Positions 2,887 to 59,561 of a DNA stretch of 64,000 bases are shown here, piece after piece. The translations under genes and the position numbers were made by a program. Every line of letters starts with the position of its first letter. The stretch's first letter is position 1. The notes below the pieces were generated by a model that was not told where the DNA came from, did not search any database, and saw only the letters and a program-made list of their open reading frames with translations. The DNA is from Planctomycetota bacterium (GTDB lineage Bacteria; Planctomycetota; UBA1135; UBA2386). The stretch spans positions 3,008,001 through 3,072,000 of the forward strand of contig OZ245838.1 of NCBI GenBank assembly GCA_965228735.1, written 5' to 3'.

Positions 2887-5553
2887 TCACAGCGCGATGT
2901 CATTGACATCGTCGTAGCGCAACTGCAGCGGGATCCGGTGGACGACCTCGTCGTCGTCGTTCAGCAGCTGCAGTTCGACCGCCGTGTCCGGCACCTGGTA
3001 GACGGGTGAGCCACCCGATCGCACGGCCAGCCGGCGGAACGAGGAGATGACGTCCGGGCGGTGGACCGTGGTCACGATGGCCTGGCCCGCGGCATCCACG
3101 ACCTGCAGCTGCGTCACGCCGGCGGGGAACGTTCCGACGAGGCGGAACTTGCCCTGGCGCGCGACGACGATGCGCCCGTCGGCCCCGGGCGCGGGCACGT
3201 CGTGCGTGCCATCGACGATCCCGGGGCCGGTGAGCCACAGCCGCACCCCGCGCTGCGGACAATCGGTCACGCGCCACCGCCCTGCTGCATCGGTGCTCCC
3301 GGCCCGCGGCAGGGAGATGAACGTCGAGCTCGACGGTCCGCGCTCCGTCGTCGCGGTCACCGCGACCCGCACACCCTCGACCGGCTGGCCGAAACGGTCG
3401 ACGACCATGCCCGACAGCTCCGGCAGGATCGCGTCGACCGGCGCGCGCAGCACGACGTCGGTCGACCCGGCGGCAATCGGACCCGACTCGATCACGAGCA
3501 GCGACGTCGGTTCGACGATACGCAGCGAATACTCGCGCGGCAGGAGCGAGCCGATCTCGAAGGACCCGTCCGCGCCCGTCAACCACTCGCCGCCGCGCTG
3601 CCGCCCGTCGAGCCAGGCCTCGAGCGAACCGGTGAACGTGCCCCACGTCGTGCCGTCGTCGAGATAGACGTTGGCCTTCGCGAGTGGCTCGCCGTCCGGA
3701 CCGAGTGCGCGGCCACGGATCGTGAGCGGCTCGCCGCCGAGCGTCAGTGTCAGGTCCCGCCCGGCCGCGCGGTCGGCGCGCAACCGCGGCGCCAGCCCGT
3801 CCATGACCGCCGGCTGGAAGCCGACGAGGTGCGCCGTCACGGGTCCATCGAACCCGCTGCCGCCGATCTCGAACTCGAACCGCCCGTTCGCGTCGGCGGT
3901 CGCTCCCGTGCTGCCGAAGCGCACGTAGGCCTCGGCCGCGGGTCGACCGTCCGCGTGCCGGACGACGCCGGACACGATGGTGCGCTCGCTCGCCGGCGCG
4001 GCCCGCAGGGTCCAGGTGACGGGCGGCACGACCTCGTCCGCCGGAGTCGACAGCGTCACGTGACCGCGCTTCTGCGCCGTGACCCGCAGCAGCGCGTGGG
4101 CCGGAACCGTCCCGAGGTCGAACGTCCCGTCCGCGCTCGAGCTGTCGCTGAACGATCGATACCCCGACGAGTGCTCGAACCGCTGCGCGATGCCGGGCAG
4201 CGACTCGATGCTGTAGCCGACGCTGACGTACGCATCGTCGATCCCCGCCCCGTGGTCGTCGACGATGCGACCCGCAACGTGAACGGCCGGCCCGACGATC
4301 ATCGTCACCTGGCGGTCGTTCGGCAGCACGCCGTAGCCGTAGAGGATCCAGTCCGTCCCTGCGATGCGCAGATACTCGGCTTCGTCCGTGCCGACGATCT
4401 CGAACTGCCCGCGGCCATCGGTCGCGGCGCGCGGCCGCGTCGCCGTGCCGAGGAGCAACTGCTCGACGAACTCCGCATCGTGGCCGAACTGGCTCGCGAA
4501 ATGACGCCGCGCGGGTTCGATGGTGCGCAGCTGCTGCAGGTGGCCAGGCTCGAGCGTCATCGACATGTTCGGCCAACGCAGCTCGTTGCCGACGAGCTGC
4601 GGCAACTTCGGATCGAAGTGCACGACCTCGATGCCGGGCAGCGGCCGACCATCGACGGTCAGCACCTGACCCGCGAAGCGACCGCCCTCGGTCGGCGCGT
4701 CGACGTCCGTAGTCGATTCCGCAGCGGTCGCGACCGCTTCCCGCGTGGGTCTCGGATCCGCCGCGACGTCGGCGCGTTGGACGTTCGCCGCCGCCGTTGC
4801 CGTGGACCGGCCGGTCGAATCCGGCACGGGCTCGCGCCAGTCGACGCCGATGACTTCGAGACCGAGAACGAGCGCCAGCACGGCGCCCACGAGCGGCAAC
4901 ATCCACTTCATCGTGAGGCTCCCCAGGAGAACGATCATGGGAACGCCAGCACCGGCCGCAGCAGCGGTCGCCTTCGCCGCCCCGCGGGCGGAGAACAGCG
5001 GCAGCAACGCGGCACACCAGGCCTGCCGGTCGCCGAACTCGTCGTCGAGCCGCGCCCGCATGCGCTCGAGCCCGCGCTGGAGCTGCGTGCGCACCGTGTT
5101 CACGGGGCGGTCGAGACGTTCGGCGATCTGCCGCGGCTCGAGGTCGTCGAAGAAGCGGAGCAGCACCACGGTGTGATACGGCTCGTCGAGCTCGAACAGC
5201 TCGTCGACGAGGCGCTTGTGCGCGGCCGCGCGTTGCGCGGCCTCGGCCGGATCGTCGCTCGGGTCGTGCGCGCGAGCGGCCACCGATTCGGCGGCGACCG
5301 TTGCCTCACGACGACGACGACGACCGTCCTGGCGACCAAACCCGCGCGCGGCGTTCTTCGCGACCCGCGCGAGCCAACCCTTGGGATTGGTCAACGCGCG
5401 GGGCGGCCGCGTCATGGCCTCGAGCATCGTCTGCTGCGCGACGTCGTCGGCGCGCGAAGGATCGGCCACGAGGCTGCGCGCGAGCGCGCGGACCCAGTCC
5501 TGGTGGGCGAGCAGAGTGGCGATGGTCGAATCGGTTCCGGTCATGGCGTTCAC
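2887..5553 (-). CDS. ECF (sigma-70 family) sigma factor fused to a TM helix and extracytoplasmic carboxypeptidase-regulatory-like repeats
   Basis: N-terminal region 2 'WVRALARSLV.D...ADDVAQQTMLEA...GWLARVAKN' and region 4 'LDEPYHTVVLLRFFDDL...IAERLDRPVNTVRTQLQRG', then a TM segment 'WMLPLVGAVLALVLGL' and beta-sandwich repeats. Start is GTG 5553 or ATG 5544. Confidence 0.85.
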   Translation of the reverse strand: MNAMTGTDSTIATLLAHQDWVRALARSLVADPSRADDVAQQTMLEAMTRPPRALTNPKGWLARVAKNAARGFGRQDGRRRRREATVAAESVAARAHDPSDDPAEAAQRAAAHKRLVDELFELDEPYHTVVLLRFFDDLEPRQIAERLDRPVNTVRTQLQRGLERMRARLDDEFGDRQAWCAALLPLFSARGAAKATAAAAGAGVPMIVLLGSLTMKWMLPLVGAVLALVLGLEVIGVDWREPVPDSTGRSTATAAANVQRADVAADPRPTREAVATAAESTTDVDAPTEGGRFAGQVLTVDGRPLPGIEVVHFDPKLPQLVGNELRWPNMSMTLEPGHLQQLRTIEPARRHFASQFGHDAEFVEQLLLGTATRPRAATDGRGQFEIVGTDEAEYLRIAGTDWILYGYGVLPNDRQVTMIVGPAVHVAGRIVDDHGAGIDDAYVSVGYSIESLPGIAQRFEHSSGYRSFSDSSSADGTFDLGTVPAHALLRVTAQKRGHVTLSTPADEVVPPVTWTLRAAPASERTIVSGVVRHADGRPAAEAYVRFGSTGATADANGRFEFEIGGSGFDGPVTAHLVGFQPAVMDGLAPRLRADRAAGRDLTLTLGGEPLTIRGRALGPDGEPLAKANVYLDDGTTWGTFTGSLEAWLDGRQRGGEWLTGADGSFEIGSLLPREYSLRIVEPTSLLVIESGPIAAGSTDVVLRAPVDAILPELSGMVVDRFGQPVEGVRVAVTATTERGPSSSTFISLPRAGSTDAAGRWRVTDCPQRGVRLWLTGPGIVDGTHDVPAPGADGRIVVARQGKFRLVGTFPAGVTQLQVVDAAGQAIVTTVHRPDVISSFRRLAVRSGGSPVYQVPDTAVELQLLNDDDEVVHRIPLQLRYDDVNDIAL

Positions 5554-5648: not shown

Positions 5649-6929
5649 TTACGACCAGGCGTCGAGCAGCCGCCGGCACTCGGCGAGCAGCCAATCGGAC
5701 TCTTCGAACGGCCGCAGGCTGATGTCCTGCCACAGGATGCGCCCCTTCGGATCGACGAGGAACGTGCCGTGCAGCGCTTCGTCCGAGAACTCGTCCCAGC
5801 AGTTCCACTGCTTGAACACCGCGCCCTGCGGGTCGCACAGGACTTCGAAGTGCAGCGGATCGACGCCGTTCTCCTGCGCCGCCTGCCACGCCGCGCGCAC
5901 GGCGTTCTGATCGTCGGTGCCGATCGTCACGACCTCGATCCCGGCGGCGTTGAACTTCGGGGTCTTGGGTTCCAGCTCGACCAGCTGGGCGACGCAGTGC
6001 GCTCAACCAAAGCCGAGGAAGAACACGACGAGCACGGGTTTGCCCGCGTAGTCGGCGAGCTTGCCGCGACCGTTGAGGCCGCGGGGGAGATCGAATGCCG
6101 GGGCCTGCTGCGGCTGCCATTCCAAGCCGTCCTCACTGCCACCCATCAGGACCGTCAGCTTCGACAAGTGGCCGTCCGGGAGCCAAAGCCGTGGGAAGTG
6201 CAGCTGCGGATGCCGCGGCAGCCGCGGCGCCACCCGCGTGTTCAGGTCCAGGCGCGCACTACCGAGGCCGCCCACGGACTCGCTGTAGCCGGGAACCAGG
6301 AACGGCATCGCGGCCATCCGCCGCATGTAGCCGTTGGCCGCCGAGTAGAACGCTTCGAACGTCGCCAGCGATGGTGACGAGTCACCATCGCAGCCCGCCC
6401 TCGTCTTGGGCCCCAATGTTCGAGCCTGCTCGAATCCCGCGAGCCTCGCGGCCAACGAGCCGTCGATCTCGCGCAGCCGCGCAATCAGCGTCTCGGCACG
6501 CTCGACGGGCTCCTTCTGAAAACCCGCATCGACGAGCTCCGGCTGCCGATCGACTCCGAAGTACTCCCGATACGCTGCGACGATGGCCGCTTCGGGCGCC
6601 GGCGCCTTGCCGACGAACTTGTTCGCCTGCCACACGAGCCGCGCCGCGCGGTTGTTGTTCGACCGCAACGACAGCGCGAGCCCGAGATGCGCGATCGCCC
6701 GCTCCGGCTCGCGATGCGCGAGCTCGCGGAACATGCGGGCCGCCTCCCAGCCCCAACCCGCGGCGAGCCGTTCGAGGCCCGCGTCGAGCAGTTCGGTGCT
6801 CGACAATGCCGGATCCGGCCGGCGCCACGGCAGGTCCCGCGCCAGATCCTGCGCTCGCAACGGTGCTACCGCGCACGTCACGAGCAGCACGACCGTCGCG
6901 ACGGCGCGGAAACGAACTTCGGTTCGCAT
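5649..6929 (-). CDS. Secreted TPR + AhpC/TSA (redoxin) protein, predicted selenoprotein (U-x-x-C; TGA at 6005-6003)
   Basis: ORFs 6003-6929 and 5649-5930 are in the same frame, separated by a single TGA: ...VLVVFFLGFG-[TGA]-AHCVAQLVELEPKTPKFNAAGIEVVTIGTD...LHGTFLVDPKGRILW. The redoxin fold continues across the TGA, which sits at the first Cys of CxxC, and a hairpin follows. Confidence 0.85.
5972..5988 (-). promoter_or_regulatory. Candidate bacterial SECIS hairpin (CCAGCU-GGUCG-AGCUGG)
   Basis: Perfect 6-bp stem with a 5-nt GU-containing loop at +15 to +31 after the in-frame UGA. Confidence 0.7.
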
Positions 6930-12835: not shown

Positions 12836-14026
12836 CTACTGCTTCATGAACCGCTCGAGGTCGGCCACGTAGTGGTCGTCCTCATGGAGTGCTATGGCCT
12901 TCTTCGCCGCCTTCACCGCCTTCTCGGTCTGGCCGTTGAGGTGCTGGCACCAGGCGACCGTGTTCCAACAATAGGCCTCGTACTTCGCGAGCTTCTCGGC
13001 GTCGTCGCCGCCTTCCGCTTTCTGGTCCGCGACCTTCTTCTGCATCTTCGTGAGCGCGCTCTCGGCGAGCTGCAGCGCGAACTTCTTCTCCTTGCTCGTG
13101 CGCTCGTCGCCGTTCTCGACGATCCAGCGCGCGACGCCATTCGACCAGTCGACGACCTTGTCGTCCGGGCAGGTCTTCCACGCCGAGTGGAACGCGGCGA
13201 ACGCGGCCTGGTCGTCCTCGCGCTTCAGCTCCATGTTGCCGATCTGCACCCAGGCCTCGTGCCTGGCCTCGGCCGGCTTGACGAGTCGAACGTGCGCGTA
13301 GAGCGGCTCGAGGTCCCACTTGCGGATGCGTTCGGCGCGCTGCGCGTCCGTCTCCTGCATCCCGTCGCCATCCTGGCCGTCGCCGTCGCCGTCGCCGCCG
13401 CCGACGATCTCCCGAATGACGTCCTGCATGCGAACGCGCGCGCCGACGACCGTCTTGCCCTTGCTGTCGATCGTCCGGATCGACTCCATGAGTTCGTCGT
13501 GGCGATCGTCGTTGCCGAGCGCCTGGACCTTGCCCGCGAGGGCCCAGCGCGCCTCGATGTCCTCGGTGCTGCCGTCCTCGTGCTGCTCGATCTGCCGCCG
13601 CAGACCGCGCACGGTGCCCTCGCCCCTCCGGATGCGCCGGAGTTCCGCGTCGAAGTCGGCCACGGGGATGAACCCCTGGATCAGATCGTCGGCCTGACCG
13701 TCGGGCGTCAGGAACAGGATCGTCGGCAGCGTCCGAACGCCGTACTTCTCGAACACGTCCTGCACGCCGTCACCGCCGTGCTTGGCGCTGTAGCACACGA
13801 ACTCGCGCATCGCGCCGGCGGCCTCGTCCGTGCTCAGCGTCTCCTGCCAGAGCTTGCCGCAGTAGTCGCTGCCGTCGGCCCAGCAGTAGACCAGGATCGG
13901 GCGGTCGGACGCCGCCGCGCGCTCGGTCGCATCAGCGAGCGAGTAGACCCAGTCGACGGGCCGGGGCGGCGTCAGCGGCAACGCGGCGGCGAGCAGGAGA
14001 ACGGAGACGAACGGAGTCGGGGTCAT
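12836..14026 (-). CDS. Secreted thioredoxin-like (Thioredoxin_7/SoxW-type, SxxC) + TPR-like protein, paralog A
   Basis: Signal peptide; 'VDWVYSLADATERAAASDRPILVYCWADGSDYCGKLW...YGVRTLPTILFLTPDG'; helical TPR-like C-terminus. Confidence 0.8.
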   Translation of the reverse strand: MTPTPFVSVLLLAAALPLTPPRPVDWVYSLADATERAAASDRPILVYCWADGSDYCGKLWQETLSTDEAAGAMREFVCYSAKHGGDGVQDVFEKYGVRTLPTILFLTPDGQADDLIQGFIPVADFDAELRRIRRGEGTVRGLRRQIEQHEDGSTEDIEARWALAGKVQALGNDDRHDELMESIRTIDSKGKTVVGARVRMQDVIREIVGGGDGDGDGQDGDGMQETDAQRAERIRKWDLEPLYAHVRLVKPAEARHEAWVQIGNMELKREDDQAAFAAFHSAWKTCPDDKVVDWSNGVARWIVENGDERTSKEKKFALQLAESALTKMQKKVADQKAEGGDDAEKLAKYEAYCWNTVAWCQHLNGQTEKAVKAAKKAIALHEDDHYVADLERFMKQ

Positions 14027-14155: not shown

Positions 14156-16684
14156 TCACAACGTGACCCGACCACCCCCGGCCGGCACCGCCGCGCGCCG
14201 CACGATCGCGCCGTCGCGATAGCCCACGACCTGGACGGCCGTCGCCGGCAGCCGGAACGCCTCCGTCCGACCACCGAGGATCGGCACCCGATCCGTGCGC
14301 TGATTCTCGTTCCCGCGCGGGATGTCCACGACGAGCGCCCGCCCCGCGGCGTCGATGACCGCGACGAGCTCGACCGCGCCCGGCTCGACCACTTCGACGA
14401 CGAGCGTGTGCTCGCGCACCAACTGCACCTCGAGACCGCCTGCGATCGCCGCCTCGAGTTCGATCGTGCGGCCGACGTAGCCCGCGCGGTGCAGGCGCAG
14501 ACGCAGATCGCCGACCGGCACGTCGTAGAGGAAGAACTCGCCGTCCGGCCCGGTCACCATCGCGCCGCGGCGGTAGGACTGCCGGAACACCGGGTGGCCG
14601 GCGGCGCTGACCTCGCAGATCGAGAGGTCGATCGTGACGCCGACGCGCGCGAGCGGCCGACCGAGCTCGTCGACGACGCGGCCCCGGAGGCGTTCGTGCA
14701 CCGCGCTGCCGAGCTGCAACGTGACGTGGTCCGCGCCGGCTGCGATGGTCTGCGGGTCGGAGCGCAGCAACGTCTTCTCCTGCCCGGCGCGCACGACATA
14801 GTCGCGGGCGTCGAGCCCCGTGATCTCGAATGCGCCGTCCGCGCCCGTGATGGCAGGCCGCAGCGGCACGCCCCGGTCGCCGAGCAGGTCCTCGACGAAC
14901 TCCGGATGGCGCGCGTTCGGCGACCGACCGTTCGCCGACCGGGAGCGCTCGCCGATGCGACCGAGCGCGGTCTGGAGGCACGTCCGCTCGGCGAACGAGA
15001 ACGGCGTGGGATCCGTGATCCACACGCAGGCATTCCGCACCGGTCGCCCGCGACCGTCGACGACCTGACCGCGGATCGCGCGCGGCCGGTCACCGAGCTG
15101 CAGAACGAGTTCGCCGCGCTCGCGATCGAGGGCCGCCGACCGCGCGATCGACGCGGGCAGCCGCTCGGGCGCGACCGCGATGACGCGGTCGCCGACCGCC
15201 GTCCTCGGCAACCAGAAGCTGCCGGCGTGATCGGTCCGCGTCACGGCGTCGCCGCACGCCACGCGCACGTCACGCGCAGCCGAACCGTCGTGGTCGAGCA
15301 CGGTGCCGACGATCGCGCCGCGCGGCGCTGGTTCCCTGGACAGAACGACCTCGCACGTGGCCGCGGCCGGCAGCGCGGACCGCTCGATGCCGAAGCCCTC
15401 GCGGCGCACGACGAGCTGCGCGCCGGCGATCGCCGGGATCGCAGCGAGATCGAACCGGCCGTCCGCGCCGGTCGTCACCGCGAACGACTCGGTGCGGGCC
15501 GCCGCCACGCGCGCGCCGAACCGCGCGCGGAGTTCGGCGGGCAGCTCGATCGCCACCTCGGCGAGCGCGAGCGGCCGGTGGTTCATATCGACGATGCGCC
15601 CCGCGAGTCGCCGCCGCGGCGCAACGACGACACAGAGATCCGACCGCACCGCCGCCGTGCCCGCGACGGCTGCCAGGACCGTGACGACGTTCTCCGACAA
15701 CGCCGTCACGAAACCGCTGCCCGACGCCGCGAGCTCGAACGCCCCATCGGTGCCCGTCAACGCGATCTTCGTGCCGCGACCACGATCGCGTTCGGGCTCG
15801 AACCGCAGGACGAGGCCGGGCGCCGGCGCACCGTCGACCGACAACGCCACGCCAGCGAGCGCCCGTTCGGGCATCTTGACCGCGCCCCAGTCGATGCCGG
15901 CGTCCGACTGCACCCCGGCCGGAGTGCGATCCGGCATCGCCGGCGCCGGATCCTCGCCCGCCGTGCCCGCGGCGGCGGTCCGGGTCGGCGGCGGCGGCAC
16001 CGGCGTCGGCTCGGCGCTCCGCCACACACCCGTCGACCACAGCGCCAGCGCCGATACGGCAACGGCAGTCACGGCAGCAGTGACGATCGCGACACCAGCC
16101 ACGCTGCTCGACGGCACCACGCGATCGCCCTCGAGCCCGGGCACCAACGTGACGAGCGGCAACAGCGCCTGCCGTCGTTCCGCCGCGCCGCCGTAGCGAT
16201 CGTCGAGCTGACCGCGGAGCTGCTCGAGCCCGCGCTGCAGCCGGGTCTTCACCGTCGCGATCGGCATGGCCAGGGTGCGCGCGATCACGGTCGGCGACTC
16301 GTCGAGAAAGTAGCGCCGCAGCAGCACGAGGCGGTAGTGCTCCGGCATCCCCATCACGGCGTTGACGACCGCGCGATGGGCGTCGACGCGCTCCACGAGC
16401 TCCGCGCTGCTCGGCTCCTCCTCGGGGCGGATGGCCGCGGCCTCACGGCAGGTGCGGCGCTCGTCGCGACGAACGCGCTCCCACAACACGTTCCGCAGGA
16501 CCCGCGACAGCCAGGCGCGCGGCGAACGGATCTCGACGGGATCCGCCTCGAGTGCCGCCAGCATCGTCTCCTGCGCCAGATCGTCGGCGTCATCGGGATC
16601 GCGCACGAGCTGCGCCGCGAGCGCCCGCACCCAGTTCGTGTGTTCGAGCAGGGTGTCGAGCGCGAGTTCGGGAGAACGGGCCAT
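14156..16684 (-). CDS. ECF sigma factor fused to a TM helix and carboxypeptidase-regulatory-like repeats (paralog of 2887-5553)
   Basis: 'LLEHTNWVRALAAQLVRDPDDADDLAQETMLAAL...AWLSRVLRN' and 'MPEHYRLVLLRRYF...IARTLAMPIATVKTRLQRG'; TM 'VAIVTAAVTAVAVSALALW'. Confidence 0.85.
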   Translation of the reverse strand: MARSPELALDTLLEHTNWVRALAAQLVRDPDDADDLAQETMLAALEADPVEIRSPRAWLSRVLRNVLWERVRRDERRTCREAAAIRPEEEPSSAELVERVDAHRAVVNAVMGMPEHYRLVLLRRYFLDESPTVIARTLAMPIATVKTRLQRGLEQLRGQLDDRYGGAAERRQALLPLVTLVPGLEGDRVVPSSSVAGVAIVTAAVTAVAVSALALWSTGVWRSAEPTPVPPPPTRTAAAGTAGEDPAPAMPDRTPAGVQSDAGIDWGAVKMPERALAGVALSVDGAPAPGLVLRFEPERDRGRGTKIALTGTDGAFELAASGSGFVTALSENVVTVLAAVAGTAAVRSDLCVVVAPRRRLAGRIVDMNHRPLALAEVAIELPAELRARFGARVAAARTESFAVTTGADGRFDLAAIPAIAGAQLVVRREGFGIERSALPAAATCEVVLSREPAPRGAIVGTVLDHDGSAARDVRVACGDAVTRTDHAGSFWLPRTAVGDRVIAVAPERLPASIARSAALDRERGELVLQLGDRPRAIRGQVVDGRGRPVRNACVWITDPTPFSFAERTCLQTALGRIGERSRSANGRSPNARHPEFVEDLLGDRGVPLRPAITGADGAFEITGLDARDYVVRAGQEKTLLRSDPQTIAAGADHVTLQLGSAVHERLRGRVVDELGRPLARVGVTIDLSICEVSAAGHPVFRQSYRRGAMVTGPDGEFFLYDVPVGDLRLRLHRAGYVGRTIELEAAIAGGLEVQLVREHTLVVEVVEPGAVELVAVIDAAGRALVVDIPRGNENQRTDRVPILGGRTEAFRLPATAVQVVGYRDGAIVRRAAVPAGGGRVTL

Positions 16685-16886: not shown

Positions 16887-18053
16887 ATGCAAGGTGTTTA
16901 CGCGATCATTGGCGCGATCGTCCTGGCCGCCCCGGTGACGGCCGGCCAACAGGCACCGGACGCTGACGGGTCCGCCGGCGCCGCGGGCGCGACGATCGAA
17001 TGGCAGAGCGGCGAACTGACCAAGAGCCTCGCCCGCGCCGAACTCGCGGGGCAGCCGCTGCTGCTCTACTTCTGGATGGATGGCAGCCAGCACTGCCAGA
17101 ACCTCTGGGGCCAGACCCTGACCCAGCCCGCGGCGGTGACCGCGCTCCAGCAGTTCGTGTGCCACAGCGCCGACGTCGCGACGCCGGCCGGCAGCAAGCT
17201 CGTGCAACGGTTCGGCATCAAGACGCTGCCGAGTCTGCTCGTCGTCACGGCGAACGGCGCGGTCGATGACGCGATGCTCGGCTTCGTGCCGCTGGCCGCG
17301 TTCTTGAGCGAGGCGCAGCGCATCACGAACGGCACGGGCACCGTCACCGCGCTGCGGGCCGCCGTCGACGCCGCACCCGACGATCTCGACCGCCGCTTCG
17401 CGCTCGGCCAGAAGCTCGAGTTCGTCGGCGACGAGGCGGCCGGCGACGCGATGTTCCAGTCGATTCGCGCGGCCGACCCCGAGGGCCGCACGACACCGGG
17501 CGCCGAACTGCTGTTGTTCGACATCCGCAATCAGATCCTCGACCGCGCGTCGGATCGGAACGACCCGGCGACGTGGGACCTCGCGCCGCTCTACCGTCGA
17601 CTGCGGCAGACGAAGCAACCAACGGTGCTGTGGAAGGGCTGGAGCTTCCTCTCGCGGATCGAAGGCGAACGCGGCGCGCCGCGCGAACAGGTCGCGGCCT
17701 ACGCCGCGGCGTGGCCGCACGCGCCCGCGGTCGAACGCGACGAATGGGGCTCGAACGTCGTCGAGAACCTCTGGAGCCGCCGCGACACGGTGCGCGCCGC
17801 CGGTCGCAAGCTGGCGCGCGAGATCGCGCGCACGCTCGCCGCACACGCGGACGCGCCGGCCGCTGATCCGGCGGGCAACGGCAGAAAGCCGCCCACGGCC
17901 GAGCAACGCGCGTTTTTCCTCGCGTCCGCGGCGCGCGGCATGGCCCTCGGCGGGCGGCGACGGGCCGCCCTCGACCTCGTCGCCAAAGCTCGCGAACTCA
18001 CGCCCGACGACGCGGCCCTCGAACAGCTGCAGCAGCAGATCGAGCGCCGCTGA
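16887..18053 (+). CDS. Secreted thioredoxin-like (SxxC) + TPR-like protein, paralog B
   Basis: Signal peptide; 'IEWQSGELTKSLARAELAGQPLLLYFWMDGSQHCQNLW...FGIKTLPSLLVVTANG'. Aligns by eye with 12836-14026 (WDL.PLY, G.GTV..LR). Confidence 0.8.
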   Translation: MQGVYAIIGAIVLAAPVTAGQQAPDADGSAGAAGATIEWQSGELTKSLARAELAGQPLLLYFWMDGSQHCQNLWGQTLTQPAAVTALQQFVCHSADVATPAGSKLVQRFGIKTLPSLLVVTANGAVDDAMLGFVPLAAFLSEAQRITNGTGTVTALRAAVDAAPDDLDRRFALGQKLEFVGDEAAGDAMFQSIRAADPEGRTTPGAELLLFDIRNQILDRASDRNDPATWDLAPLYRRLRQTKQPTVLWKGWSFLSRIEGERGAPREQVAAYAAAWPHAPAVERDEWGSNVVENLWSRRDTVRAAGRKLAREIARTLAAHADAPAADPAGNGRKPPTAEQRAFFLASAARGMALGGRRRAALDLVAKARELTPDDAALEQLQQQIERR

Positions 18054-56724: not shown

Positions 56725-58179
56725 ATGACCCCGGAGATCCTCATGCGAAGTCACCTCCAGCTCTCGGCACCGGCGCTCGCCGGCCTGCTGTTCCTGCCCG
56801 CCACCCTCGCGCAGTCCGCCGACTCCCGATCGAACGGGATCGAACGACCGGAGTTCGCCGCCCCGGTGCGGCTGCAGGCCGGCAAGGAGTTCCTCGGTCA
56901 GGGGCGCCTCTACCCCTCGCCGGTCTATCACGACATGAACGGCGACGGCCGGCTCGACATCGTCGTCGGCGACCTCTGGGGCAAGCTCACGGTAGCGCTG
57001 CGCGAGCCTGGCAGCTCGCCCGCGATCGCCGGCGAGACCAAGCTCAACGGCACCGATGGCGAGGTGCTCGACTTCGCCAACTGGTGATGCATCGGCATGA
57101 GTCCACAGTTCGTGGACTTCAACGCCGACGGCCACCTGGACATCGTCGCGGGCACGTTCTCGGGCTCACCGTGGATCGCGTTCGGCACGAAGGATGGCTT
57201 CGCGCAACCGGGTATGATCCACGACCGGAGCGGCGAGCGCATCGTGCTCAACCAGTTCTGGAACTACGACACCAAGAAGTGGGACTCGACGACGCGCTGC
57301 AATCCTGCCGGCGAGGAACTCGGCAACGGCCACGGCACGTCGGCGCTCGCGTTCGATCACGACGGTGACGGCGACTTCGACCTGTTGCTCGGCGACTACG
57401 ACACGGGTCACCTGTTCCTGCGCCGCAACGAGGGCAGCAACGCCGAGCCGAAGTTCGCGACGCACAACGAGCTCGTCCGGGCCGGCGGCGAGCCGATCAA
57501 CGTCGGCAAGATGGCGACGATGCGCGCGCTCGACTGGAACGGTGACGGCCACCAGGATCTCCTGATCGGCAGCTTCGGCGACAGCTACGGCCCCGGCACG
57601 GGCGGCGGCGTCTGGCTGTTCCCCGGCGCGACCCGCGCGGACAACGGCGACGCGCAGTTCGGCGCGCCCGTGACCTTCGTCGACCCGAGCAAGAAGGACG
57701 GCAGCGGCCCCGCGCGCCCGGACACCGGGCTCTACGCCGACGCGGCCGATCACGACGGCGACGGCGACCTCGATCTGATCGTCGGCGGCTACGCGATGTG
57801 GCAGCCGAAGAAGCCCACGCTCGGGCCCGACGAGGAGCGCGAGCTGGAAGGGCTGCGGAAGGACCACGAGGAAGCTCTCGCGCGCAATCGCGAGCTCAAC
57901 CTGGCGTTCTACGCGGCGCTCGAGGAGGTCCCCGAAGCCGACAAGGCGGCGATGCGCGCGAAGCTCATCAAGGCTCAGAAGGACCAGCGCGCCGAGGTGT
58001 CGCAGAAGCTCTCGAAGATCAACGAGCGCCTGACGGAGCTCGACCCCGGCATGCAGCGGCAGGCCTTCGTGTGGCTCTACGAGAACCTCGCGGTGAGCAC
58101 GCCCGCCACGCCTGGCCCCGATGGCCAAGAACAGGGTGGCGAGCAGGGACAGGGCGGCGAGCAGGGCGGAGTGCGCTGA
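56725..58179 (+). CDS. Secreted FG-GAP/VCBS-repeat protein, predicted selenoprotein (W-U-C; TGA at 57085-57087)
   Basis: ORFs 56725-57087 and 57097-58179 are in frame: ...EVLDFANW-[TGA]-CIGMSPQFVDFNADGHLDIV.... FG-GAP repeats lie on both sides (DMNGDGRLDIV; DFNADGHLDIV, DHDGDGDFDLL, DWNGDGHQDLL, DHDGDGDLDLI). No RBS before 57097; SECIS-like hairpin follows. Start may be ATG 56743. Confidence 0.75.
57100..57118 (+). promoter_or_regulatory. Candidate bacterial SECIS hairpin (AGUCCAC-AGUUC-GUGGACU)
   Basis: Perfect 7-bp stem with a 5-nt GU-containing loop at +13 to +31 after the in-frame UGA. Confidence 0.7.
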
Positions 58180-58181
58180 TC

Positions 58182-59561
58182 GTGCACCGCGCCGCCCTCC
58201 CCCTGCTGGCTGCCGCGATCGGCGGACTCGACGCGACCGCGCAGAACCCCGTCGATCGCAAGGCGCAGGAGCGCTTCCAGAAGGCCGAGAAGGCGGTCGC
58301 GGACAGCAAGTTCAGCGCGGCGCACAAGCTCTACCGGCAGCTCGCGCGCAAGTATCCCAACACCGCGTGGGGCAAGATCGCCGCGCTGCGCACCGAGCCG
58401 ACGGCGTTCCTCGGCTACGCCGATCTGCTGCGGCATGGTGAGCCGACCAATCGCGTGGACGTCGTCGTCATGGGCGACGGCTACGCGCTCGACGACCAGA
58501 ACGAGTTCGAGGACGTCGCGAAGTCGGTCGTCGACGTGTTCCGCCGCGAGAACGTGCTCGGCGAGTACTACGCGTATCACAACTTCGTGCGGGTCCACCT
58601 GACGAGCAAGGACCAGGGCGTCTCGGGGTTCGGCCGCAAGAAGGAGACCGCGCTCGGCGGCAAGATCGCCGGCAAGGTGCAGGGCCAGGTCGGGGTCGAC
58701 ATCCGCAAGACCAAGAAGTGGCTCGACCAGCTCGCCCACCACGACGGTTACGCGATCGCGATCGTCAAGGCGGGCTCGAGCGGCACGGGCGGCGGCGGCA
58801 TCGCGGCCGTCGGCGGCCGCGCGGACGGGACGCTCGTGCACGAATGGGGTCACGCGTTCGGCGGGCTGAGCGACGAGTATTCGACGTTCACCGGCCACCG
58901 CGGCTCGCCGCGCAACACGGTCAACGTCAGCACCACCGACGACCTCGCCAAGGTGCCGTGGAAACACTTCGTCGAAGCGAAGTATCCCGGCGTCGGCGCC
59001 TACCGCGGCGCGGACGGCCGCATCAAGGGCGCCTACAAGCCGACGTCCGGGCAGTGCCGCATGGGCAGCGCCAACGACTTCTGCCCCGTCTGCCGCGAAC
59101 GGATAGTGCTGCAGATCTACCGCCGCGTCGATCCGATCGACGCACACGAGCCGCGCACCGAGCACGACAAGAACCGTGCGACGATGATTCGCCGCGAGAC
59201 GAAGTTCGAGGTCACGGTGCTCGAACCGAAGTCGCATCGCCTCGATGTCACGTTCCACGTGATCCCGGAGCAGGCGGCCATCCGCCCGCGCAACGACGAG
59301 CGACTCGAAGACCGCCAGCGGCGCGGCAAGCTCGCGGACATCCGCGAGACGGTGCAGAAGACGAACGGCAAGTTCGGCGGCCGCGGCCGCTACTCGATCA
59401 CGATCGGGCCGCGCGAGCTGCCGCCGGGGCGCTTCCAGATCGTCTGCCGCGTGCGCGATGACAGCAAACCGAGCGGTGAGTCGCGACCGTGGGTGCTGCG
59501 GGACGACCGCGACCTGCTCGCGAGCGAGCGGGTGTGGTGGGTCGAGATTCCGGAGCGGTAG
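58182..59561 (+). CDS. M64 (IgA peptidase-like) family metallopeptidase with N-terminal TPR-like segment
   Basis: 'NRVDVVVMGDGY', 'HEWGHAFGGLSDEY', 'VPWKHF', 'CRM...FCPVC'. Confidence 0.85.
   Translation: MHRAALPLLAAAIGGLDATAQNPVDRKAQERFQKAEKAVADSKFSAAHKLYRQLARKYPNTAWGKIAALRTEPTAFLGYADLLRHGEPTNRVDVVVMGDGYALDDQNEFEDVAKSVVDVFRRENVLGEYYAYHNFVRVHLTSKDQGVSGFGRKKETALGGKIAGKVQGQVGVDIRKTKKWLDQLAHHDGYAIAIVKAGSSGTGGGGIAAVGGRADGTLVHEWGHAFGGLSDEYSTFTGHRGSPRNTVNVSTTDDLAKVPWKHFVEAKYPGVGAYRGADGRIKGAYKPTSGQCRMGSANDFCPVCRERIVLQIYRRVDPIDAHEPRTEHDKNRATMIRRETKFEVTVLEPKSHRLDVTFHVIPEQAAIRPRNDERLEDRQRRGKLADIRETVQKTNGKFGGRGRYSITIGPRELPPGRFQIVCRVRDDSKPSGESRPWVLRDDRDLLASERVWWVEIPER

Follow-up and report, generated by a model that had tools for sequence, protein, structure and literature searches.

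The bacterial SECIS element is summarized in PMC13188914, in the part of that paper that sets out the consensus, as a hairpin with a stem of 4 to 16 bp, a loop of 3 to 9 nt in which a G at position 1 or 2 is followed by G or U, and a spacing of 16 to 37 nt; the energy limit applied there is -7.5 kcal/mol or lower. The archetypes are the three elements of E. coli K-12 (NC_000913.3). The fdhF loop is GGUC at +19, and that of fdnG and fdoG is AGUCU at +19, or GUC at +20 if the A-U pair closes. The stretch of planctomycete DNA analysed here (the window, 64 kb, contig positions 3008001-3072000) contains two in-frame UGA codons, each followed by a compact hairpin (Table 1). The sequence-only reading had described both hairpins exactly: coordinates, stems, 5-nt loops from +20 or +21, GU at loop positions 2-3 and a 3' end at +31 were all found as it gave them. 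Both sites fit the consensus, as they lie within an ORF and have 19 and 20 nt between the UGA and the loop. This fit is weak evidence either way, because the consensus as we coded it (one bulge at most) misses the three E. coli elements and passes 393 of 900 (44%) ordinary TGA gene ends. From the comparisons described below, we conclude that both hairpins are very probably real, ordinary bacterial SECIS elements and that the in-frame UGA upstream of each is read as selenocysteine (Sec).

Table 1. Features of the two UGA sites (window positions; plus offsets are counted from the UGA)
Feature	Positions	Strand	Description
Site-1 gene	5649..6929	-	426 aa with UGA read through; U309 in F-L-G-F-G-U-A-H-C (UxxC); AhpC/TSA domain C-terminal
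AhpC/TSA (PF00578) domain spanning UGA	5733..6110	-	aa 274-399, E 8e-21, 74.7 bits, cut-off 26
In-frame UGA, site 1	6003..6005	-	Cys codon (TGC/TGT) at this column in 24 homologs; three further genomes have TGA
Putative SECIS upper hairpin, site 1	5972..5988	-	stem +15..+20 / +26..+31, 6 bp; loop GGUCG +21..+25 (5982-5978)
Site-2 gene	56725..58179	+	484 aa with UGA read through; start possibly ATG 56743; W-U-C = U121-C122
FG-GAP_3 (PF13517), single match across UGA	56932..57147	+	model positions 1-60 of 61, E 2e-7
In-frame UGA and next Cys codon, site 2	57085..57090	+	UGA 57085-57087; TGA in 29/29 aligned homologs
Putative SECIS upper hairpin, site 2	57100..57118	+	stem +13..+19 / +25..+31, 7 bp; loop AGUUC +20..+24 (57107-57111)

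Sec machinery and the decoding of UGA

The window is part of one 7.19-Mb contig with 69.4% GC, representing a genome that is 93% complete. All that a host requires for a bacterial selenoprotein gene is there, as selA, selB, selC and selD are all encoded. selA and selB score above cut-off, selD carries an in-frame TGA of its own at the UxxK position of its family, and the tRNA-Sec reaches an Rfam score of 76.6 bits against a cut-off of 47. SelB aligns with E. coli SelB over 638 columns at 32% identity, with the alignment reaching the C-terminus, and the C-terminal winged helix is present (SelB-wing_3, E 4e-11). At gathering thresholds Rfam finds no family in the 64-kb window; the tRNA-Sec, the only match, lies at a separate locus. 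selA is present in 41 of the 41 genomes of the same order that were searched.

Read-through of UGA as Cys or Trp, by a special UCA tRNA or under a changed genetic code and with the hairpin being incidental, would also give full-length proteins. Cys-inserting UCA tRNAs occur in some bacteria, and three weak read-through candidates in this genome stand opposite Trp in paralogs. However, there is a single UCA-anticodon tRNA among the 68 ARAGORN calls (4 with unreadable anticodons), and it is the one that scores as tRNA-Sec. Moreover, selA, selB and selD are intact, the last with the UGA typical of its family, and TGA is the main stop, ending 3,620 of the 5,293 genes called with our own Markov gene caller. 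We therefore regard decoding as Cys or Trp as very unlikely.

Site 1 has a hairpin in its UGA form and not in its Cys form

Searching 41 genomes for homologs of the site-1 gene returned 30 loci. The column of the UGA holds TGA in 4 of them (this genome included) and TGC or TGT in 24, and the 2 misaligned loci are other peroxiredoxins. A hairpin with a G[U/G] loop follows the codon in 4/4 TGA homologs but in 0/24 Cys homologs. The three closest Cys orthologs have a near-identical peptide, yet their stem is broken or the GU is lost. The 5-nt loop is unique to the copy in this genome, as the other three UGA orthologs have one extra pair and a 3-nt loop. With its 6-bp stem and GGUCG loop, the site-1 hairpin has an energy of -10.3 kcal/mol. 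Taken alone, this folding is no more stable than that of shuffled sequences (z +0.27 and -0.53), and an equally good fold arises in 19% of 200 synonymous recodings. Both UGAs recur unchanged in contigs from other public runs, and for some of these runs a link with the source of this DNA is possible; one strain differs at 15 positions across 401 nt, with zero differences within 5962-6108, the region of the site-1 UGA and hairpin.

The protein has a hydrophobic N-terminus and, by a hydropathy heuristic only, is likely exported. It has PF00578/PF08534, the UxxC motif and many Cys homologs in common with the Prx-like thiol:disulfide oxidoreductase/Redoxin selenoproteins in Table 1 of PMC13188914. 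It is unlike that class in its approximately 270 additional N-terminal residues, for which there is no Pfam match, and in its NCBIfam scores, all far under cut-off. The relatives of site 1 are mainly in the Cys form (24/28). Its domain and motif place site 1 in the catalogued Prx-like UxxC class.

The next gene downstream of site 1 encodes an ECF-type sigma-70 protein (window 2887-5544, minus strand), and a second gene of this type is found at 14156-16684 (minus strand); both proteins have long C-terminal carboxypeptidase-regulatory-like repeats. Two Thioredoxin_7 proteins without UGA (12836-14026, minus strand, and 16887-18053, plus strand) are encoded on either side of one of these sigma genes.

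Site 2 belongs to a family in which UGA and stem are conserved

The site-2 protein has five FG-GAP-type repeats and a hydrophobic N-terminus. Among 30 homologous loci, 29 align at the UGA; the codon is never TAA or TAG, and several of the homologs lack the downstream ATG. A G[U/G]-loop hairpin is present in 25 of the 29 UGA homologs. The stem in this genome extends to 8 bp if the G-U pair 57099/57119 (+12/+32) is added, with an energy of -11.4 kcal/mol. Its folding beats shuffles modestly (z -2.0 and -2.3), and 0 of 200 synonymous recodings are as stable. Covariation was scored in 31 sequences (28 distinct, with two in-genome paralogs added), which are related, so that the following figures are not probabilities: 94.9% of the cells are paired, 3 of the 7 pairs show two-sided change, 0 of 500 shuffles score as high, and slid controls reach 28-42%. 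RNAalifold returned the same core stem for the family. Two rare codons in the 5' arm, AGT (4.8% of Ser) and CCA (3.7% of Pro), are invariant across the nearest homologs (14/14), and third positions become more variable from +34 onward.

Database homologs give another view of this gene. Out of 192, 179 align downstream of the UGA only and 171 begin at the next Met, the ATG 9 nt after the UGA, which indicates that the database entries of this common planctomycete family are truncated. The named relatives are mostly Planctomycetota MAGs. A Cys version is found in two full-length database proteins, P0184 and P0189; both have W-C-C-I-G and match DsbD_N at the C-terminus (E 1e-9 and 4e-4, respectively; the match in P0189 is below the Pfam cut-off, with 20.9 versus 25 bits). 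A profile search of 1.84 billion representatives with the family gave output dominated by long generic FG-GAP proteins. The AlphaFold2 model (pLDDT 96.2, pTM 0.92) has an all-beta body and a helical hairpin, with the U-C pair in a loop, and the predicted fold is a beta-propeller plus a helical hairpin. A peptidase M64-like gene (window 58182-59561, plus strand) starts 3 nt past the site-2 stop, and co-transcription is possible.

These data bear on the view that split genes result from true stops, nonsense mutations or sequence errors at the two UGAs and that the hairpins are background in GC-rich DNA. In favour of this view, TGA is the usual terminator in this genome, ordinary TGA ends often pass the published consensus, a few TAG, TAA and TGA codons stand opposite non-Cys residues, and there is at least one apparent frameshift. 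At site 2, there is also the nearby ATG at which most database homologs start. However, Pfam domains run across both UGAs, homologs of both sites have Cys at the same column, the site-2 codon is never another stop, the downstream ATG is not always there, the site-1 hairpin disappears in the Cys homologs, and other public runs have identical codons. That the two UGAs simply terminate or interrupt genes is thus extremely improbable, and Sec insertion at both remains our reading. The proposal in the sequence-only reading that these are SECIS-type hairpins after Sec codons is borne out by the Sec machinery, the domains across the UGAs, the Sec/Cys pairs, the coupling of hairpin and UGA, and the covariation at site 2.

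Hairpin geometry across the genome and in relatives

The same reading went further and proposed that UGA-N12-14, a stem of 6-7 bp and an RGUYN loop define a lineage-specific SECIS. We coded this pattern as a loop start at +19..+22, RGUYN, a stem of 6 bp or more and no more than one G-U pair. In the window it picks out exactly these 2 of 1,124 TGA triplets, and genome-wide 27 of 134,569. It is highly specific: it matches 7 of 52 predicted Sec sites (4/35 in tier 1 and 3/17 in tier 2, as defined below; one of the tier-2 sites was chosen partly for its hairpin) versus 0 of 3,579 TGA gene ends that are not candidates, and in controls it is found at 0/1,442 TAG ends, 0/231 TAA ends and 1/19,547 Cys codons. 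It also occurs in 21/29 members of the site-2 family, and stems here are mostly unbroken over 5-9 bp whereas in the three E. coli elements a bulge interrupts the stem after 4-5 contiguous pairs. These are the points in favour of a compact element specifically required by the SelB of this lineage. Yet the pattern misses 45 of the 52 sites, and two of the seven it matches had served to define it; it is absent from all 40 held-out sites in relatives, and only 1 of the 4 site-1 UGA orthologs has it. An RGUYN loop at +19 is also what fdnG and fdoG of E. coli have. A lineage-specific class thus fails its own tests, as it covers a minority of the Sec sites of the lineage and shares its loop type and spacing with E. 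coli, and we consider it very unlikely. The SECIS itself is textbook knowledge, and the test disposes of a false lead.

A broader rule describes the sites better: a 3-5-nt loop with G[U/G] at position 1-2, starting at +17..+34, and -7.5 kcal/mol or better. As this rule was tuned on these sites, its matches at 27/35 tier-1 and 15/17 tier-2 sites have to be read with that in mind; the homologs in the hairpin counts are also related, so that the counts are not independent. Backgrounds are 90/900 sampled TGA ends, 93/900 Cys codons and 4/65 CxxC motifs, and the expectation from synonymous recoding is 6.1 sites in tier 1 and 2.0 in tier 2. Eight of the 35 domain-defined sites have no hairpin by this rule, nor do 7 of the 8 UGA members of one Trx-like family. 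The held-out set consisted of the first 40 of about 50 TGA-bearing PF00578 matches among those listed in relatives (448 further matches were unlisted), with 20 stop-free PF00578 matches, 19 with a usable Cys, as controls. The broad rule found hairpins at 19/40 UGA versus 1/19 Cys codons, and the published rule at 32/40 versus 8/19.

The 42 detected hairpins have loop starts from +18 to +32 with a mode at +22, and 6 have a core stem ending at +31. The commonest loops are GGUC (8), CGUGA (5) and AGUUC (4). The geometry is steady inside a gene family but different between families. One and the same 7-bp GGUC hairpin stands at +25..+42 in four TlpA-like paralogs (contig 848558, 3714212, 3976156 and 6546711; U-G-P-C or U-P-P-C), some 12 nt beyond those of the window. 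Codons just 3' of the UGA are rarer at true Sec sites, and because of this a coding score taken just downstream of the UGA penalises true sites.

A large predicted selenoproteome

Candidates were TGA codons with coding context, of which 58 ORFs were scanned with Pfam and 30 with NCBIfam. In tier 1 (35 sites in 32 genes), a family model spans the UGA, which stands where a redox or metal Cys is expected; two of the 32 are HMA genes with the U placed at the edge of the domain. Tier 2 comprises 17 sites in 16 genes. When 14 of these 16 were compared, the TGA was conserved in relatives or paralogs for 13 and in a same-genus genome only for 1. We predict 45-48 selenoprotein genes with 52 Sec sites, approximately 32 of the genes belonging to known families, and the hint of a selenoprotein-rich genome in the sequence-only reading has thus held. 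Independent six-frame searches gave TGA-bearing matches that were all on the list already (10/10 for PF00578, 5/5 for PF13899, 5/5 for PF00085, and 2/2 for PF13517, for which 150 of 329 were scored). Some sites may still be absent from the list, as the coding score described above initially passed over one AhpD site.

We discarded twelve candidates that were unproven or that we judged to be true stops or neighbouring genes (C1 1807619, 3115822, 4150215, 4577434, 5199719, 5253108, 5365156, 6358502, 7017076, 7077822, 2927091 and 3835296). One of them, 2927091 (contig 2926468-2927217, minus strand), stays outside the count but may be a real Sec site: its UGA follows an N-terminal membrane segment, a 9-bp GGUC hairpin has its loop at +25 and an energy of -19 kcal/mol, and there is no family match. 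A thioredoxin-like gene at contig 5287428-5287736 (minus strand) has an apparent frame shift close to a TAG, perhaps caused by an indel in the assembly, and other Sec genes may be hidden likewise.

Several other genes are of interest in their own right. An FG-GAP/ASPIC-UnbV protein (contig 5458926, plus strand; loci L210-L229) has UGA in 16 of the 19 homologs that align, and a G[U/G] hairpin accompanies every one of these; the three others have Glu, Glu and Asp instead of Cys and are without hairpin. A thioredoxin-like family with G-H-P-L-G-C-T-U has four paralogs (contig 3484699, 4855623, 6929513 and 7087946) and TGA in 25/25 loci (L230-L254), with no Cys form among them and no NCBIfam match at 1e-7. 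A helical protein with L-P-G-E-U-x-G-C near its C-terminus and no Pfam match (contig 3763190, minus strand) has TGA and a GGUC hairpin in 10/10 loci (L265-L274), and one relative has U-x-x-U. Four genes have two UGAs each (contig 1926-2543, minus; 501120-501602, plus; 583187-583822, plus; 6693395-6694411, minus): two are of a tandem HMA type, one is U-L-P-U and one is of a VPGUxxT thioredoxin-MsrA type. In the gene at 1926-2543, both UGAs and both hairpins are kept in 7/7 genomes with a match.

Discussion

By the E. coli paradigm, SelB-GTP-Sec-tRNA would bind the apical-loop G(U/G) through its C-terminal winged helix and deliver Sec once the UGA arrives at the ribosome. The SelB of this genome would tolerate a loop start from +18 to +32, a 3-5-nt G[U/G] loop and mostly unbroken stems of 5-9 bp. 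As the hairpin lies inside the reading frame, each gene family would keep its own solution within this range, and the geometry therefore becomes family-specific. The likeness of the two hairpins in the window would then be fortuitous, both falling in the common mode near +20 to +22. The site-1 product is presumably an exported UxxC thiol oxidoreductase or peroxidase. The site-2 product may be an exported propeller in which the vicinal Sec-Cys pair is the likely redox centre, probably re-reduced by a DsbD-type route.

The size of the selenoproteome can be set against BSepDB. In its Table 2 (PMC13326102), the ten largest bacterial selenoproteomes have 46-63 genes and no planctomycete is among them. 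With 45-48 predicted genes, chiefly of thioredoxin-fold, AhpD, HMA, MsrA, rhodanese and SelD types, this genome is at the edge of that top ten; the like-for-like count is approximately 32, since approximately 12-13 genes are in families unmatched to the catalogue. The BSepDB supplement gives genomes only, with at least 407 Planctomycetota rows, and six putative selenoproteins are given for planctomycete P1 in PMC4807772. Our literature search found no paper on Planctomycetota selenoproteins with in-frame UGA or on Sec genes of OM190/UBA1135.

From its gene content the host is likely an oxygen-respiring bacterium. A cbb3 subunit exceeds its cut-off and an aa3-like one falls slightly short, and an aa3-like oxidase is found in 35 of 41 genomes of the order. 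NapA-like and PhsA-like enzymes are also encoded beside these oxidases, so the host may be facultative. FdhA (contig 6396623-6397915) has Cys at the catalytic position, and the Sec trait in this genome is therefore not kept for FdhA. A glutathione peroxidase domain was not found in this 93%-complete genome. Many redox selenoproteins are reportedly known from marine aerobic metagenomes, which tempers the surprise. A published review, in its statement on the subject, holds that aerobic bacteria seldom keep selenoproteins and that Sec-rich bacteria are predominantly anaerobic. A genome with aa3-like and cbb3 oxidases, a Cys-form FdhA and so many predicted selenoprotein genes goes against that statement.

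On balance, we favour a wider picture: an order of oxygen-respiring Planctomycetota with one of the largest bacterial selenoproteomes, lacking a Sec-formate dehydrogenase in this genome and made up largely of exported redox proteins. Several of its families would be uncatalogued, including an FG-GAP Sec-Cys propeller that receives its electrons by a DsbD-type route and an ASPIC/UnbV propeller in which Glu or Asp replaces Sec, and its genes would be split at UGA in databases. If this is true, an order-wide aerobic selenoproteome contradicts the current statement, as worded in that review, that such retention is rare in aerobic bacteria.

Site 2 has DxxGDG-type repeats and a propeller fold in common with the FG-GAP/VCBS propellers (PF13517) such as CRTAC1 and the integrin alpha head. 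The nearest solved structure, murine CRTAC1, is remote (TM-score 0.41, 14% identity), and integrin propellers reach 0.41 at most. The vicinal U-C pair sets site 2 apart from the known members. The 119-family selenoprotein catalogue (Table 1 of PMC13188914, 2026) has no FG-GAP/VCBS row, and the NCBIfam (seleno)protein models gave only one unrelated match, below cut-off. Our literature search found no paper on FG-GAP selenoproteins; a listing in other catalogues (BSepDB families, Haft & Tolstoy 2025) is possible. With respect to that table of 119 families, the FG-GAP U-C proteins are a predicted uncatalogued selenoprotein family.

The 52 sites form a natural series for one SelB, with loops from +18 to +32, in which spacing tolerance is directly testable. 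Compared to the fdhF, fdnG and fdoG elements, with GGUC and AGUCU loops at +19, the window sites have GGUCG and AGUUC at +21 and +20, and other genes of this genome have loops as far out as +32. The loop type and spacing of the window sites are thus common to the archetype, and only the stem differs. The upper stems are unbroken over 6-8 bp at the window sites, whereas those of E. coli have 4-5 contiguous pairs and then a bulge; it is on the 6-bp unbroken stem alone that the E. coli elements fail the proposed pattern. It is possible that this preference for mostly unbroken stems of 5-9 bp gives the SECIS elements of this genome a mild lineage flavour.
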